Part shown: piece after piece, positions 18,238 through 48,908 of the stretch
Position numbering within the stretch: position 1 is the stretch's first letter
How the letters are laid out: every line of letters starts with the position of its first letter
Assembly: GCA_009691905.1 (NCBI GenBank)
Contig: SIAF01000001.1
Coordinates: 1-49,603 of the forward strand
Direction of reading: 5' to 3'
DNA length: 49,603 nt
Origin: Planctomycetaceae bacterium
GTDB taxonomy: Bacteria; Planctomycetota; Planctomycetia; Planctomycetales; Planctomycetaceae
The notes under the pieces: model-generated
What the model was told of the DNA's origin: nothing
What the model saw: the letters and a program-made list of their open reading frames with translations, nothing else
The model's database searches: none
Position numbers and translations under genes: made by a program

Positions 18238-19314
18238 CTACGAATGCTCTGCCCGTCGCAGACGGTCGTTGAGCGCTCGCCCCAGCCCCTGCTCGGGAAA
18301 TGGCTCGGCGACGATCAGTTCGAGCCCGGCCGCGTCGAGCCGGCGCAGGGCGGCAAAAAACTTCGCGGCGGCCTCGCGCAGGTCACCGGTTACCGAAAGC
18401 ACTTCGACAACTGCGTACGGTGTCGTGTCGGCAGGGAGACGAAAGGCGAGGAGCCCGACTCGATGGAGTGAGGCCGCAGTTCGCTCCGCCTGGTCGCCGG
18501 TCGAGTGCGTCGGCCCCTGCACCACGAGCGCCGTTCGCGGTGCGTAATGCTGGGGCAGCGTTCCCGGAGAGGCCTGTCCCGCCGACGATTCTTCGATCGG
18601 CTGCATCCGCCCCTCGCCCCTCGCCCCTCGCCCCTCGCCCCTCGCCTGTCCCGCCGGCGATTCTTCGATCGGCTGCATCGCGGGAACCTTAACCGGGCCT
18701 ATGACCGCTTCGATCTCTTCCAGTGTGGTCCCACCCGGACGCAGCAGTGTGGCCCCATCGGGACTCAGTTGCAGCACGGTCGATTCGACCCCGACCCGGC
18801 ATGGGCCTCCATCGAGAATCAGATCGACGAACGTTCCCAATTGCTCGCGGACATGGGCCGCAGTCGTCGGGCTGATCCGGCCGAACAGGTTGGCGCTCGG
18901 CGCGGCGATCGGCACGCCGGCCGCGCGCAACAATTCGAGGGCCAGCGGATGATCGGGCATCCGCACGGCGACCGTGGGGCAGCCGGCCGTCACCAGATCG
19001 GGCACAGCCGCTGTCCTGGGCAATACCAACGTCAGTGGACCGGGCCAGAAGCGATCGATCAGCGATTGAGCCGCGGCGGGGACTTCGACAACCAGTCGCG
19101 GCAGCCAACTCGGGTCGGCAACGTGTACAATCAGAGGATCGAACCACGGCCGACCTTTGACCTCGAACACGCGGGCCACAGCCCGTCCGTCGAACGCGTT
19201 CGCCCCCAAACCGTAGACCGTTTCGGTGGGAAAGGCCACGATCCCCCCCTCACGCAAAAAGCGCGCGGCACGGGTGATTTCGTCAGTCGTTGCAGGTGGC
19301 TGCGGGTTCGACAT
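18238..19314 (-). CDS. tsaC: L-threonylcarbamoyladenylate synthase, Sua5-type (YrdC domain + Sua5 C-terminal domain)
   Basis: GGIVAFPTETVYGLGANAF...KGRPWFDPLIVHV marks the YrdC domain. The HYAP linker motif and a C-terminal Sua5 domain follow. I take the start as ATG 19314 (MSNPQPP...). The ORF track extends it to a TTG at 19362. Confidence 0.88.
   Translation of the reverse strand: MSNPQPPATTDEITRAARFLREGGIVAFPTETVYGLGANAFDGRAVARVFEVKGRPWFDPLIVHVADPSWLPRLVVEVPAAAQSLIDRFWPGPLTLVLPRTAAVPDLVTAGCPTVAVRMPDHPLALELLRAAGVPIAAPSANLFGRISPTTAAHVREQLGTFVDLILDGGPCRVGVESTVLQLSPDGATLLRPGGTTLEEIEAVIGPVKVPAMQPIEESPAGQARGEGRGARGEGRMQPIEESSAGQASPGTLPQHYAPRTALVVQGPTHSTGDQAERTAASLHRVGLLAFRLPADTTPYAVVEVLSVTGDLREAAAKFFAALRRLDAAGLELIVAEPFPEQGLGRALNDRLRRAEHS
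18572..18678 (-). repeat. 35-bp direct duplication flanking a (CCCCTCG)5 heptamer array inside the tsaC coding sequence
   Basis: DR1 18572-18606 and DR2 18644-18678 differ at one base and are offset by exactly 72 nt. Five CCCCTCG units occupy 18610-18644. On the coding strand this encodes MQPIEESPAGQA-RGEGRGARGEGR-MQPIEESSAGQA. Confidence 0.9.
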
Positions 19315-19543
19315 CGTGTGAGAGGATACCGCGCAGCGCAGCGCTTTCGTAGGACGGTGCAACCTGGCATCAGACGGCGGTCGCCGGAAATTGCGTTTGC
19401 CGACGGTGGTCGGTACGCTGATCTGCGTCGATTGACAAGCGCCAGTCCCGTTTTCAACTGTTCATTCTCCCCGCCCCCCGTCGAGGGAGAGGGGAGAGAA
19501 AAACCGAATTCACCTGGCGACCTGACTCCCGGAGACGCATCTC

Positions 19544-32524: not shown

Positions 32525-34156
32525 GTGCGCCGCATGTCGCCGCGATTTACTTTTCACGCAGTGGTGTTGTGGCTCGCTGCGGCGGGGACGCTGATGGCCC
32601 CGACAGCGCCGCCAGGGCTGACGACGTCGGCGGCGTTGGGGGCGGGTTCACCGCGAATTCGAACTGTGGCCCGGCGTCCGCGCGACGTCTCGCAGTTCAA
32701 GCGGCAACATGCCGAACGTCGGGACAAATTCACCGCCGCGCTGGACGATCTGGCGAGCGATTGTGACTCCAAAGGCCTTGCCGACGCGGCCGAGGGCATT
32801 CGCCGCCTTGCCGAGCCGGTGGACACGGCCGAATTGCGGATGGCGCCGCTGCCCCACGCCGTTCTTGAGCCGATTTCGCACGACTTGCCCGCCGACGAGC
32901 GTCTCTGGCGCACGCAGTTGAGATTCCAGCAGGAATCGTACGCCAAAGATCTGTACCTCTTGTCGCGGACCGCGCAGCTCTCGGGACACATCAGTTTCGC
33001 GTTCGACCTCGTGCGCGAAGCCGCGTTCAATCATCCCGATCACAAGGCGGCCCGCCGCGTGCTGGGGTTCGTCCAGAGCGGCGACGAATGGCTCTCGTCG
33101 TTCGAAGACAAGATGCAGAAGGACAAAAAGGTCTGGCACGACGAATTCGGTTGGATCCCGCGGGAACACGTCGAACGCTACGAGCGCGGCGAACGGTACT
33201 ACAAAGGCAAGACCGGCGCGGCCCAGTGGATGAGTGCGGCCAAAGAGGCCGAGCTGCACCGCAAATTCTCCAACGCCTGGGAGATTCGAACCGAGCATTA
33301 CCTTGTGAAAACCAACCACAGTCTCGAACGGGGTGTCCAGATCGCGAAGAAGCTGGAAGGCGTGCATAGCCTCTTTTTTCAACTGATGGCGGGCTTTTTC
33401 AACGCCCCCGAGCAGGTTCGCAAACTGTACGAAGGCTCGAGTGCCAAATTGCCGCCAATGCCCAAGGCCAACGTCGTGCACTATTATCGCGAGCGGCAGG
33501 AGTACCTCGATACGCTAAAACTTTTGACCGATCAGCCGATCGAAATCACGCGCGGGATGTACTTCCCGCGCGGGGGCATTGCCTACTTCTTTTTCGACCC
33601 CAATGCGAACGACGACTCGACGCTGTACCACGAGGCGACGCACCAACTGCTCTCGGGCAGCCGCCCCAAAACGGGCGACGTCGGCATTAAGAACAGCTTC
33701 TGGATCATCGAAGGCATCGCCTGCTATATGGAATCGTTCCATCGCGACGGCGATCGGTTTTCAGTCGGCGATCCCAGGCACGAACGAATTCAGTCAGCCC
33801 GCTATCACCTGATTGACGAACACTACTACGTTCCCTTCCGCGAATTCGCGCGGATGGGCATGGTGGCCTTTCAGGGCATCCCGACGCCCCGCATCGGCAA
33901 GAATTACAGCCAGGGGGCGGCGCTGACGCACTTCTTCATGCACTATGACGACGGCCGTTATCGGGAAGCCCTGATCGAGCATCTCTCGCAGGTCTACAGC
34001 CCCACGAAATTCGTCCGCGAAGCCCCCGAATCGCTGGAAGACCTGACCGGCACCGAAGCCGAAGAACTCGACCAGCAGTACGCCGAGTACATCCGCAACC
34101 TGACGCTTGAGCCCCCCCCGCGGCCGTCGCGCGAATCGGCCGGCGTCGGGAAATGA
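32525..34156 (+). CDS. DUF1570-type putative MA-clan metallopeptidase, secreted
   Basis: It has a signal peptide and the motifs LYHEATHQLL (HExxH) and FWIIEGIACYMES downstream, as in DUF1570. The start is GTG 32525 or ATG 32534. Confidence 0.75.
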   Translation: MRRMSPRFTFHAVVLWLAAAGTLMAPTAPPGLTTSAALGAGSPRIRTVARRPRDVSQFKRQHAERRDKFTAALDDLASDCDSKGLADAAEGIRRLAEPVDTAELRMAPLPHAVLEPISHDLPADERLWRTQLRFQQESYAKDLYLLSRTAQLSGHISFAFDLVREAAFNHPDHKAARRVLGFVQSGDEWLSSFEDKMQKDKKVWHDEFGWIPREHVERYERGERYYKGKTGAAQWMSAAKEAELHRKFSNAWEIRTEHYLVKTNHSLERGVQIAKKLEGVHSLFFQLMAGFFNAPEQVRKLYEGSSAKLPPMPKANVVHYYRERQEYLDTLKLLTDQPIEITRGMYFPRGGIAYFFFDPNANDDSTLYHEATHQLLSGSRPKTGDVGIKNSFWIIEGIACYMESFHRDGDRFSVGDPRHERIQSARYHLIDEHYYVPFREFARMGMVAFQGIPTPRIGKNYSQGAALTHFFMHYDDGRYREALIEHLSQVYSPTKFVREAPESLEDLTGTEAEELDQQYAEYIRNLTLEPPPRPSRESAGVGK

Positions 34157-34182
34157 GGGGCGAGGGGCGAGGGGCGAAGGGT
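34155..34182 (+). repeat. (GAGGGGC)3 + GAAGGGT heptamer array (G-rich on the plus strand)
   Basis: G4 tracts lie at 34157-60, 34164-67 and 34171-74, and a G3 tract at 34179-81. The array overlaps the TGA of the DUF1570 gene and directly abuts the stop of the four-helix-bundle gene. Confidence 0.9.
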
Positions 34183-34548
34183 TTAGGGACGAGATTGCAG
34201 GGCTTTGCGCAGGCCGGCCAGCATGCGGCTGATTTCGTCCGACAGACTCAGGCATTTCTCCAGGTCGTCCTTCTTCAGAAGATCGACGTCGTGACTGAGG
34301 ATCAAGTGCGTTTCCAGTTCGGCCAACGATCCCTGTGCGACGCTCAAGTAATTCAGGTATTCCTTCGTGTGCGCCCTCGCGTTCCCCTCGGCGATGTTTG
34401 CCGGGATTGAGGAGGCCGAGCGCCGAATCTGACTGGTCATCCCGAACAGTTCGCTCTTGGGAAACATCTTCGTCAGTTGGTAGCAGCGTTTGGCGAGAAT
34501 CATCGACTTCTGCCAAACAATCAACTCCCGATAATGCTGCGCTTTCAT
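34183..34548 (-). CDS. Four-helix-bundle protein (TIGR02436 / 23S rRNA intervening-sequence protein family, same family as DGR Avd)
   Basis: 121 aa. YRELIVWQKSMILAKRCYQLTKMFPKSELFGMTSQIRRSASSIPANIAEGNAR...YLNYLSVAQGSLAELETHLILS is the characteristic signature of this family. Confidence 0.9.
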   Translation of the reverse strand: MKAQHYRELIVWQKSMILAKRCYQLTKMFPKSELFGMTSQIRRSASSIPANIAEGNARAHTKEYLNYLSVAQGSLAELETHLILSHDVDLLKKDDLEKCLSLSDEISRMLAGLRKALQSRP

Positions 34549-34554
34549 GTTTTT

Positions 34555-34597
34555 CCCTCTCGCCCCTCGCCCCTCGCCCCTCGCCCCTAGCCCCTAG
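34555..34597 (+). repeat. CCCTCTCG-(CCCCTCG)3-(CCCCTAG)2 heptamer array (C-rich on plus strand, inverted relative to 34155-34182)
   Basis: The array starts 6 nt from the four-helix-bundle ATG. Its last two units encode the final Ala-Arg-Gly-stop of the CusA-like gene. 34562-34582 is the perfect complement of 34155-34175 (21 bp). Confidence 0.9.
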
Positions 34598-37500
34598 CCG
34601 CCTCCCGTTCTCGCTGCAATTTAAGCCACCGCCCGCGGCGGACCCAATAGAAGCGCACGGGGAGAAACAAATCGACCACTTCGTCGGAGATCAACAATCC
34701 CCCCAGCACAGGCAGCGCCATCGGGGCCAGGATTTCGCCGCCGACCCCCGTGGCGAACACCATCGGAAAGATGGCGATGATCGCCACCCCTTCGGTGAGC
34801 AGCTTGGGGCGCAGGCGATGGACGGCCCCCTCGATGACCGCCTGCCGCAGCTCGTCGAGGGACTGGATGTTTTCCAACCCGCCGCGTTTCTCAATCGCCT
34901 CGCGCAGGTAAACCAGCATGATAATGCCGGTTTCCGTCGCCATCCCGAAGCAGGCGATGAAACCGACCCACACGGCAACGCTGAAATCCATCGGCGGGGC
35001 GCTCCACCCCTGCATGATCTTGGGAAACAGGAACATGAAAAACGCCCCGCCGGCCAGTGCCTCGGGGACGGCCAGCATCATCAGGGCGGCGTCGGCCAGG
35101 TCGTGGTACGTCATGTACAAGATCACGAAAATCAGCACGATCACGGCGGGAAACACGAATCGCAAGGTGCGCGCGGCTCGCACCTGGTGCTCGAACTCGC
35201 CGCTCCACTCGATGTGTACTCCTTCGGGCAGTTTGACCTTCTGACTGACGACGCGCTGCGCCTCGTCGACGAAGCCCACGATGTCGCGGCCGCGGACGTT
35301 GAGGGTCACTGCATTGAGCAACCGCCCGTTTTCGCTTTTGATCATCGCCGGGCCTTCGACGATGCGAACATCGGCCAGCGCCCCCAGCGGGATCAGCGGT
35401 TTGCCGCGCAGCGCATGCCCCGGCGTTGCGGAGTGCGACTCGCCCCCGGAGGGGGGTGCTGCGACTGTCCCCACCCCGCCCCCGAAACGAACCGTGGCTT
35501 CGCCCGAATCGGCATCCATCGTCGTGGGCGCGCCCCTCCCCGTCGGCGCGCTCATGCTGCCGGGGCTGACCAGCAGCCGGCGAATACTCTCTTCGTCTTC
35601 GCGATGGACGCGCGCATAGCGGATGCGGACCGGAAATCGTTCGCGCTTCTCGACGGTGTAAGTCACTGCGCGCCCGGCCAGGGCGACTTCGATCTCGTTC
35701 TGAATGTCTTCGACCGAGATGCCGTACCGGGCCGCCTGCTCGCGATCGATGTCGATTTGCAGGTAACCCTTGCCCATGATGGGCGAGGCGATCGTGTCGC
35801 GTGCGCCTTTGAGCGGCTTCAAGGCCGCTTCGATGTCTTTGCAGACGCGGTCGATCGTATCCAGATCGGGACCAAAGACTTTAACGCCGATGTCGGTCCG
35901 GACGCCGGTCGAGAGCATTTCGATGCGGTTGATGATCGGCTGCGTGAAAATGTTGCTCCAGCCGGGCACCTGCAAGACGCGACCCATCTCGTCGTCCACG
36001 AGCACAGCCTTGGGGCCGTTCGCTCTGGACCAGAAAAAGGTTCGCTCATGAAATGGCCTTTCAAGCTCGGTGCGCAGCGCCAGAAACGGCTCAATCGCAG
36101 CGCTGTCGAATTCGTGGCCGAGTTGAATTTGCAGGGTGGCCGCGGCAAAGCGTTCGAGGGCAGCCCCCTGTGGTGCGTCGCCGACCAGCTTGGCGGCGAT
36201 CGCGGCTTTCGCGACTTCCTCCAGGGCATATGCCGTATAGGCTTCGATGCCGCGGTCGAACAGTTCCCAGTTGATCTCGCGGACCCGCTCGTGCCAAAGT
36301 TCCAGCCGGCGCGCTTCAATCGAGTGCAGTAATTCGCCGGCAACGGTGGGGCGCTCGCCTCCCAGTGCTTGGGCAACCAGGTGGTAGGCCTGTGCCGGCA
36401 ATGACCCTTTCCATTCCAACGCTTCGACGACGCTATTGATGATTCCGCGCTCATGCAGGTCGCGAGCCGTTTCCTGCGTCAACAGGGTGACATCCTCCAA
36501 AGCCGGATTGCGGGCCAGCCAGCGGCCGAATTGCGGGGTAATCGCCGCGGTCAGACGCTCGATGTGACTTTGCTCGCTGTCTGGTGCGGGCCACTGCAAA
36601 TGGCCGGCGGCGTGCATGCGGCCGACCAGGTCGGTGATAGCGACGCGGGTCAGCGCCGACTCGAGCTCGCGCTCGAATTCCTGATAGCGCAGCGATGCCA
36701 ACTCGCGCAGCGTCTCGTCGAACCGCTCGAGTGCCCTTTGGGTCGCGTCGTTGAGGACGTTTTTCCGCGCTTCATCGAATTGCTGCTGCTTTTTCTCATC
36801 CTCGGGCGCAGGAGGCAGATGACCGTGCTGTTCCAGCGCCTGCCAGACGGCGGAGCTCTGTTGGAGGGCGTCATCGAACTTCAGCACGCGTTTGGGCCAG
36901 AGTTCCTTGGGGCGGAAGTTGACGAACGTCTCGACCATGTCGAGCGGCGCGGGATCGGTGGGAGTGTCGGCTCGGCCCGCCTTGCCGATCACCGACTCGA
37001 CTTCGGGAAAACCCCGCAACAGCGCATCGCGCGCCTTCAAGTCGTCGGCCGCTTCGGTCACGCTGGCCCGTGGAACGGTCACCGGCATGTCGAGTGTCGT
37101 CCCCTCGTCGAGGGCCGGCATGAAGGCCACGCCGATCTTCGGGAAATGGTAGGCCCACAGGCCGATCAGCACCAGACTGGACAAGATGATCGTTCGCCAG
37201 ACCACGACGCGTTGAGTCTTGAATGCCAGAATAAATAACCCGGTGACGATCGCGGCGGCATAGCCATAGCAAATACATTTGAGTGGCCAGATCGCAATCT
37301 CGAATGGCGTCTTGGTGAGCAACAGGCCGATTTGCGGAGCGACCCAGACGAAGCCGACTGCGATAGCGACCAGCGCCAAAGCGAGCATGAAAAACAGCAT
37401 ATCGCGCAGGAATGACACGAAGCCCTGTCCGCGTTTCCCTGTCGTGGCAAGTACGGTCAATGACGACACCAGCCCGAACACCGTCAGAAAACACCATCGC

Positions 37501-48823: not shown

Positions 48824-48827
48824 AGCC

Positions 48828-48903
48828 AGGGGCGAGGGGCTAGGGGCTAGGGACGAGAAATCGAGTTCTATCCACTATCCACTATCTACTATCTACGATC
48901 CAC
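48828..48903 (+). repeat. GGGGCGA/GGGGCTA heptamer array + 11-nt match to the four-helix-bundle gene 3' end + (TATCCAC)5 heptamer array
   Basis: AGGGGCGAGGGGCTAGGGGCTAGGGACGAGA lies at 48828-48858. TAGGGACGAGA is identical to 34184-34194 (stop + Pro-Arg-Ser of the 4HB gene). TATCCAC TATCCAC TATCTAC TATCTAC GATCCAC lies at 48869-48903. Together these fill almost the whole 85-bp convergent spacer. Confidence 0.85.
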
Positions 48904-48908
48904 GCGGC

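Follow-up and report, generated by a model that had tools for sequence, protein, structure and literature searches.

A 72-nt block in the Sua5 gene

The window analysed here is a stretch of 49,603 nt (contig SIAF01000001.1 of GenBank assembly GCA_009691905.1) from a Planctomycetaceae bacterium, whose metagenome-assembled genome (MAG; G000 below) comprises 6.36 Mb in 490 contigs at 61% GC and is 93.7% complete. At positions 18238..19362, on the reverse strand, it carries the gene for Sua5 (L-threonylcarbamoyladenylate synthase), an essential enzyme of tRNA modification, and this gene contains an in-frame block of 72 nt whose structure and origin are the subject of this report. The open reading frame (ORF) is 374 aa long with a likely ATG start at 19314, and Pfam recognizes in it a YrdC domain at aa 35-210 (PF01300 Sua5_yciO_yrdC, 4.9e-60) and a Sua5_C domain at aa 213-371 (PF03481, 1.4e-23). 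Relatives of the protein in databases, from Planctomycetaceae, bear the annotation L-threonylcarbamoyladenylate synthase, and the features by which the Sua5 family is recognized are all found in it, namely a YrdC-like domain, the PG(M) and HY motifs of the linker and the SUA5 C-terminal domain. The MAG encodes a second ORF with a YrdC domain on contig C143, at 30% identity, and comparable second matches are present in most relatives; the gene in the window is therefore the Sua5 orthologue.

The boundaries of the block were determined using a direct-repeat search and Tandem Repeats Finder (TRF), and all coordinates are positions in the whole window. Two direct copies of 36 nt, 97% identical (35/36, with one C/T difference), begin 72 nt apart and enclose an insert of 36 nt. 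Read in gene order on the reverse strand, copy 1 (18644..18679), the insert (18608..18643) and copy 2 (18572..18607) encode the peptide MQPIEESPAGQA-RGEGRGARGEGR-MQPIEESSAGQA-SPGTLPQHYAP, in which the first three elements correspond to the three parts of the block and the last is the conserved linker motif, encoded at 18538..18570 directly downstream of copy 2 and intact. The insert reads (GAGGGGC)x5+G on the coding strand, and TRF reports a perfect period-7 array, (CGCCCCT)n, with 5.6 copies and 100% matches at 18608-18646, such that 3 nt (GCC) are common to the heptamer array and the 36-nt repeat. The single C/T difference corresponds to a Pro/Ser change, with copy 2 being nearer to the S-[SA]-G-[LQ] of the relatives. 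In total, the linker joining the two domains has gained 72 nt, or 24 aa, in frame. A preliminary description of this DNA had proposed such an insertion, and the repeat search, TRF, the ORF and its Pfam domains bear it out; the division given there, a 35-bp duplication around a 37-bp array, has the correct total and the correct single mismatch, but the tools place the split at 36 + 36, with one ambiguous G at the junction.

Randomly placed positions in this genome score lower for flanking duplication. The flank-duplication score at Sua5 is 33.5, compared with a maximum of 20 and a 99th percentile of 10.5 for 2000 random genome placements. A blastn search against the genome showed that arrays on contigs C475 and C33, which are longer than the one in Sua5, contain 36-mers identical to the Sua5 insert, and it gave a match of 35/36 on C5.

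Within the linker, the block occupies the N-terminal, variable portion and directly precedes the PG(M) and HY motifs. These motifs are essential in Sua5 of P. abyssi, where they build the lid of the active site, and in Sua5 of S. tokodaii the stretch corresponding to the linker is disordered (PMC6004061). In our alignment of orthologues (A1), residues P250, G251, H256, Y257 and P259 are invariant. Because the target was duplicated, the 12 native residues still precede the SPG motif; native sequence is restored at both junctions, and what stands upstream of the PG/HY lid motif is still the native sequence. An AlphaFold2 model built from A1 is mostly confident in both domains (means of 75-97 over 10-residue blocks), while residues 213-255, counted from the ATG, have predicted local distance difference test (pLDDT) values below 50. 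The additional 24 residues are thus predicted by the model to fall in a disordered portion of the linker.

The block is missing from Sua5 orthologues

If the block were an ancient feature of the family, orthologues would be expected to share it. The window protein was aligned over its full length with 11 orthologues of its genus and family, which are 49-69% identical to it, and in all 11 the linker is present as a single copy, for example ...PSSGLASPGTLPQHYAP and ...PSAGLLAPGTLPSHYAP, with a gap at the 24-residue block. The comparison with close relatives that the preliminary description had suggested therefore comes out in favour of an insertion. In a search of 5.8 billion proteins, none of the 120 best matches exceeds 70% identity, and almost all of them are 320-350 aa long; the best of these database matches likewise have a single-copy linker. 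An exact search of metagenome and genome collections with the reconstructed empty Sua5 site returned no match. Comparison of the sequences supports the view that the block is a lineage-specific, frame-preserving insertion.

One orthologue from another genus (L015, G023:C132) has an insertion of its own, of about 23 aa (PTRRVARPDQRERPTRTDETAVA; A1 columns 184-206). Its position is not that of the 24-aa block; it falls between strands where the YrdC domain ends.

A family of repeat-insert-repeat units with a 72-nt period

We scanned the whole genome with k-mers for direct repeats spaced 45-100 nt apart, and describe the results as R-S-R units, in which R is the duplicated target and S the insert. 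Apart from Sua5, the genome contains six perfect units with non-heptamer inserts, with R of 36-38 nt, S of 34-36 nt and a period of exactly 72. The R + S lengths are 36 + 36 at C14:6402, 37 + 35 at C133:10646, C253:2096 (2096-2204), C336:5935 and C399:2672, and 38 + 34 at C409:3918. Three further units have decayed: C164:8640 (copies 33/37, period 72), C77:12189 (copies 33/36, period 71) and C367:4815, in which a 36-nt (GGGGCGA)x5 insert is enclosed by copies that are about 68% identical, at period 72. A sensitive scan of the flanks of heptamer arrays produced four matches at a period of exactly 72 within the top 15, namely Sua5, C367, C110 and C151; the last two are weaker candidates, and some weaker imperfect ones occur at periods 71 and 73. 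The period itself stands out from the background: among exact repeats of 33-39 nt, seven are spaced at 72 (six of these being the non-tandem units), and there are none at nearly all spacings of 55-99, with the exceptions being multiples of 7 and coding repeats. A model with a fixed sum and a variable partition of the two lengths was considered and rejected, as the R lengths cluster at 36-38 only.

The targets and inserts of these units are mutually unrelated, such that at least seven independent sites combine different targets and different inserts at one fixed period. Some of the inserts can be traced. The C399 insert is an exact copy (35/35) of coding DNA for a ROK-family kinase at C36:1686-1720, with unrelated flanks, and the Sua5 insert matches the array 36-mers on C475 and C33 described above. 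The C14 and C77 inserts are hairpins resembling repetitive extragenic palindromic (REP) elements. Three inserts resemble coding DNA yet have no source in the MAG, and exact searches of viral, metagenome and genome collections with the C133, C336 and C253 inserts gave no match. The share of heptamer arrays in the genome is 0.069%, yet they account for at least two of the 10-17 inserts (p ~2e-5 to 6e-5).

Two units besides Sua5 can be compared with an empty site. At C253 the unit forms an in-frame insertion of 24 aa that duplicates SLGQVHRAWHFD, in the region of the nucleotide-binding motif of a protein identified by its sequence motif as a UbiB/ABC1-type kinase. The insertion is missing from five relatives (G001, G002, G003, G005 and G008); in each of them, both halves of the query match overlapping coordinates, which indicates a single copy. 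The C133 unit interrupts one copy of a repeat of about 100 nt that is dispersed in the genome; in the paralogous copies on C354, C125 and C88 the target continues without interruption into the downstream sequence.

A related arrangement was observed at C470:13330-13552, where a 72-nt unit with a hairpin inside is repeated 3.1 times at 96% identity. Recombination between the repeats of an R-S-R unit could have produced these copies by amplification; an ordinary tandem duplication could have done so as well.

CRISPR systems in related genomes and in the MAG

The lengths of R and S recall those of a CRISPR array, and we therefore compared them with the CRISPR systems of related genomes. Cas1 is present in 20 of the 41 relatives and in one of the four genomes of the genus. 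The latter genome, G002, encodes a Cas4-Cas1 fusion of 757 aa beside genes of the GSU0054 and GSU0053 families, a combination that identifies the locus as type I-G (formerly I-U). The array adjoining this locus has the 36-nt repeat GCTTCAATGGGGCCGCGATCAATTGATCGCGGAAAG and spacers of 36, 37, 36, 36 and 36 nt, so that its successive periods are 72, 73, 72, 72 and 72; two arrays of G012 have periods of 71-77 and 72-73. In Geobacter sulfurreducens, spacers newly integrated by the I-U Cas4/1-Cas2 are predominantly 36 bp long, and 50-80% of spacers have a TTN protospacer-adjacent motif (PAM) (Almendros et al. 2019, PMC6547450).

G000 itself retains CRISPR-like sequences at two places. At C54:644-751 is a degenerate mini-array of period 72, whose two repeats belong to the type I-G repeat family and differ from the G002 repeat at 6 and 8 positions; cas genes are absent nearby. 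C294:2769-2804 holds a single isolated repeat from another CRISPR family, beside a gene that by eye looks like a transposase. At a distance of about 5 kb from its cas locus, G002 has a decayed unit with a 72-nt period (L031, on C126, 11580-11682), in which copies that match at 28/36 positions enclose an insert of 36 nt.

Possible origin by ectopic spacer integration

Integration by Cas1-Cas2 duplicates the sequence between two staggered attack sites, which is normally the CRISPR repeat. We consider it reasonably probable that the 72-nt block in Sua5 is the scar of such an integration at an ectopic site, of the type I-G-like kind that produces a 'neo-CRISPR' unit. An integrase of the Cas1-Cas2 type, of the type I-G kind with a Cas4-Cas1 fusion and with rulers of 36 nt for the repeat and 36 nt for the spacer, would have made two staggered strand-transfer attacks 36 bp apart within the linker codons of Sua5 rather than at a CRISPR repeat. 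The joined prespacer of 36 nt would have been a chance piece of a genomic GGGGCGA heptamer array, and gap filling would have copied the 36-nt target twice. Sua5 would tolerate the result because the context of its motif is native and the extra residues fall in a linker predicted to be disordered. As the repeat-spacer unit of 72 nt is a multiple of three, any such event within a gene adds 24 codons in frame.

Several observations argue for this origin. R has the length of the CRISPR repeat of the same genus (36 nt in Sua5, 36-38 nt in the six other units), and S that of the spacers of the system (36 nt in Sua5 and 34-36 nt in the other units, compared with 36-37 nt in G002). Empty sites are available in the Sua5 orthologues, the UbiB relatives and the paralogues of the C133 repeat family. 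The C399 and Sua5 inserts have matching sequences elsewhere in the genome, and the C54 mini-array of G000 shares the repeat family of the type I-G array and its period of 72. The identical 36 + 36 = 72 geometry with unrelated inserts indicates that the duplication belongs to the inserting machinery and that the heptamer stretch is its cargo; the array in Sua5 is probably captured DNA and not a mobile agent. Of the possibilities raised in the preliminary description, an insertion with a large staggered cut agrees with this duplication geometry.

Other observations weigh against spacer integration. Profiles of Cas1 (PF01867) and Cas2 (PF09827) and a tblastn search with the G002 Cas4-Cas1 fusion found no match in the 93.7%-complete MAG, nor was a full CRISPR array found in it; the search with PF09617 (GSU0053) also gave no match in the MAG, but its control had no match in any genome either, which makes this search uninformative. 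The single traceable protospacer, that on C36, has no TTN PAM beside it on one strand or the other, and GGGGCGA arrays lack TT and hence any possible TTN; in published I-U adaptation, TTN accompanies 50-80% of the spacers rather than all of them. Only the C133 target, at 18/36, is more similar to the CRISPR repeat than chance would give. The inserts are enriched for the structured repeats of the genome (heptamer arrays and REP-like hairpins), which is atypical of canonical spacers. Finally, a 325-kb sample of the cas-positive G002 contained no further unit, where fewer than one was expected.

The cas genes may have been lost after the integrations, or their locus may have escaped binning; both are plausible. 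Cas1 occurs in only one of the four genomes of the genus, and two perfect copies of 36 nt can persist over the time that divergence within a species takes. The excess of heptamer sequences may arise because ectopic units escape the selection against self-targeting that purges such spacers from real arrays. Spacer acquisition is reportedly biased towards stalled forks and DNA ends (Levy et al. 2015), and, by analogy, breaks induced by repeats or by G-quadruplexes (G4) may feed the prespacer pool.

Alternative explanations

The strongest alternative to spacer integration is an undescribed process, independent of Cas1, that adds a patch of about 72 nt made up of a short copy of the cell's own DNA, preferably from structured repeats, together with a re-copied target; this might be a repair reaction or a reaction of a primer-relocation polymerase at stalled forks. 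We regard it as distinctly less probable, but several of the difficulties listed above become points in its favour, namely a MAG without cas genes, inserts strongly enriched for heptamer arrays with REP-like hairpins at C14 and C77, and the lack of a TTN PAM in traceable or heptamer-derived inserts. Such a process does not account for the constancy of the partition, as all six perfect events have R of 36-38 and S of 34-36, nor for the agreement of these values with the repeat and spacer lengths of the type I-G array found in the genus and with those published for acquisition by I-U systems. We know of no repair reaction that gives a fixed 36/36 split. The three coding-like inserts that are missing from the MAG are as expected for foreign spacers, and they too speak against copying from the cell's own DNA. 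There is a similarly small chance that the 72-nt units result from a cas-independent process of insertion or repair operating in Planctomycetota and perhaps other phyla. It would bring a copy of about 36 nt of structured DNA (heptamer/G4 arrays, REP hairpins and now and then coding DNA) to a site and copy 36 nt of the target again, and CRISPR adaptation would then have its geometry in common with this process or be descended from it.

The preliminary description had interpreted the heptamer array itself as an invasive unit, that is, a mobile sequence that inserts with a long target-site duplication (TSD). Period-7 arrays are indeed over-represented in the genome: exact arrays of at least three units number 52 at period 7, compared with 17-19 at periods 5 and 6 and 5 at period 8. 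About 108 heptamer arrays pass the TRF filter, most of them intergenic, with unit families AGGGGCG, GTGGATA, AGCGGAA, GTGGATG and others. They flank three of the four genes in the MAG that encode four-helix-bundle proteins, and they are found in frame within genes for a CusA-like RND pump (C176:2692-2742), a UvrA-like protein (C27:10421-10456), LeuRS (C66:8202-8226) and an Lhr-type helicase (C486:19502-19576 and C486:15949-15983, with an inverted pair 25 nt apart in Lhr). The second (GGGGCGA)x5 insert of 36 nt, in the decayed 72-nt-period duplication at C367, is also consistent with mobility. The flanks of the arrays argue otherwise, since only 2-5 of the ~108 arrays have any flanking duplication and Sua5 alone has a long one. 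The in-frame arrays in the pump, UvrA-like, LeuRS and Lhr genes have no target duplication; that in the CusA-like gene is an insertion of about 15 aa when compared with the orthologue in G003. The arrays vary in length between 21 and 144 nt without a preferred unit, and thus they do not show the same element with defined ends and a characteristic TSD at many sites, as a transposable element would. Together with the occurrence of the same 36 + 36 geometry around six unrelated non-repeat inserts, this makes a mobile heptamer array improbable. The alternative that the four-helix-bundle genes drive the heptamer arrays was also rejected, as there are four such genes and more than 100 arrays.

A single replication accident, the other option in the preliminary description, would have involved a fork that stalled at a quadruplex, switched to a heptamer array as its template and then returned upstream, as in microhomology-mediated break-induced replication or fork stalling and template switching (MMBIR/FoSTeS). 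G-rich arrays are plausible fork barriers, a 3-nt microhomology (GGC) is present at one junction and the lone mismatch between the copies could be due to error-prone synthesis, but fork stalling at a quadruplex leaves unexplained why at least seven independent loci, most without G4 sequence, have exactly 72 nt split 36/36, and we consider it very improbable. An artefact of assembly or library preparation in this short-read MAG, to which its 490 contigs and the perfection of six units might point, is equally hard to credit, because the copies have diverged to different extents in Sua5 (35/36), C164 (33/37) and C367 (about 68%), which indicates events of different ages, with C77 diverged as well; because a similar decayed unit occurs in an independent assembly (G002 L031:11580-11682); and because an assembler requires real junction k-mers to produce R-S-R, with inserts that are clean 36-mers.

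Comparison with known systems and possible implications

The closest parallel to spacer integration outside CRISPR arrays is the off-target activity of Cas1-Cas2 in E. coli that makes neo-CRISPR units (Nivala, Shipman and Church 2018, as cited in 10.1101/148544). As far as that citing source describes them, these units are likewise duplications, of repeat length, of ordinary DNA around an insert of spacer length, at many independent sites with unrelated targets, and some of their inserts derive from the cell's own DNA. The published case, as given there, concerns type I-E with 28 + 33 nt and over-expressed Cas1-Cas2, and the natural cases are circumstantial only. The units of the planctomycete MAG differ from that account in being 36 + 36 (type I-G-like), in occurring in the wild and in frame in essential coding sequences, in the absence of cas genes from the assembly, and in inserts rich in structured repeats. 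The type I-G (I-U) module (PMC6547450) shares with them its main spacer length of 36 bp, and G002 carries both the module and an array of period 72; its canonical integration takes place at the leader-repeat junction with TTN PAMs, whereas the Sua5 insert and the traceable protospacer have no TTN.

Transposons and casposons also leave a direct target duplication after a staggered cut and fill-in. Their TSDs are 2-15 bp long, their elements have defined ends and are the same at each site, and they depend on a transposase or casposase; the units in the MAG have duplications of 36 nt and inserts that are all different, and no gene of the Cas1 family is present. Genome-wide arrays of 7-nt units are known from filamentous cyanobacteria as short tandemly repeated repetitive (STRR) sequences, which are mostly intergenic and of several unit types per genome. 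To our knowledge such arrays have not been described with target duplications of 36 nt, and the Sua5 array differs from them as a 36-nt excerpt inserted as cargo. A literature search for heptamer repeats in Planctomycetes found no paper.

If ectopic spacer integration is the correct explanation, CRISPR adaptation would mutate ordinary genes in the wild, essential ones included. Repeat-plus-spacer units divisible by three, such as those of 72 nt, would provide ready-made in-frame insertions of 24 residues, in which the duplication protects the flanking motifs, and they would represent an unrecognised source of insertions and deletions in proteins. Since ectopic scars are not filtered by the lethality of self-targeting, they would expose the unselected prespacer pool, and the enrichment of this pool for heptamer/G4 sequences and hairpins would point to breaks induced by DNA structure as sources of prespacers. 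The scars would also record past CRISPR-Cas activity in genomes whose cas loci have since been lost or were not assembled.

Other heptamer arrays in the window

Heptamer arrays occur at two further places in the window. The gene for a four-helix-bundle protein (23S_rRNA_IVP/bAvd-like; Pfam 23S_rRNA_IVP, 2.4e-39), on the reverse strand at 34183-34548, has on its left a GAGGGGC array detected by TRF at 34155..34181 on the forward strand, of the family that could have donated the Sua5 insert. On its right is a GGGGCGA/GGGGCTA array at 34559..34604, on the reverse strand and therefore inverted relative to the left one. The heptamer of Sua5 is thus present beside this gene, as had been noted previously, and the paralogous four-helix-bundle genes on C335 and C197 have arrays of other unit sequence. 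The second place is the spacer between two convergent genes at 48824-48908, which is filled by a degenerate AGGGGCG/AGGGGCT array (48828..48857, forward strand) followed by a CTATCCA/CTATCTA array (48868-48903).

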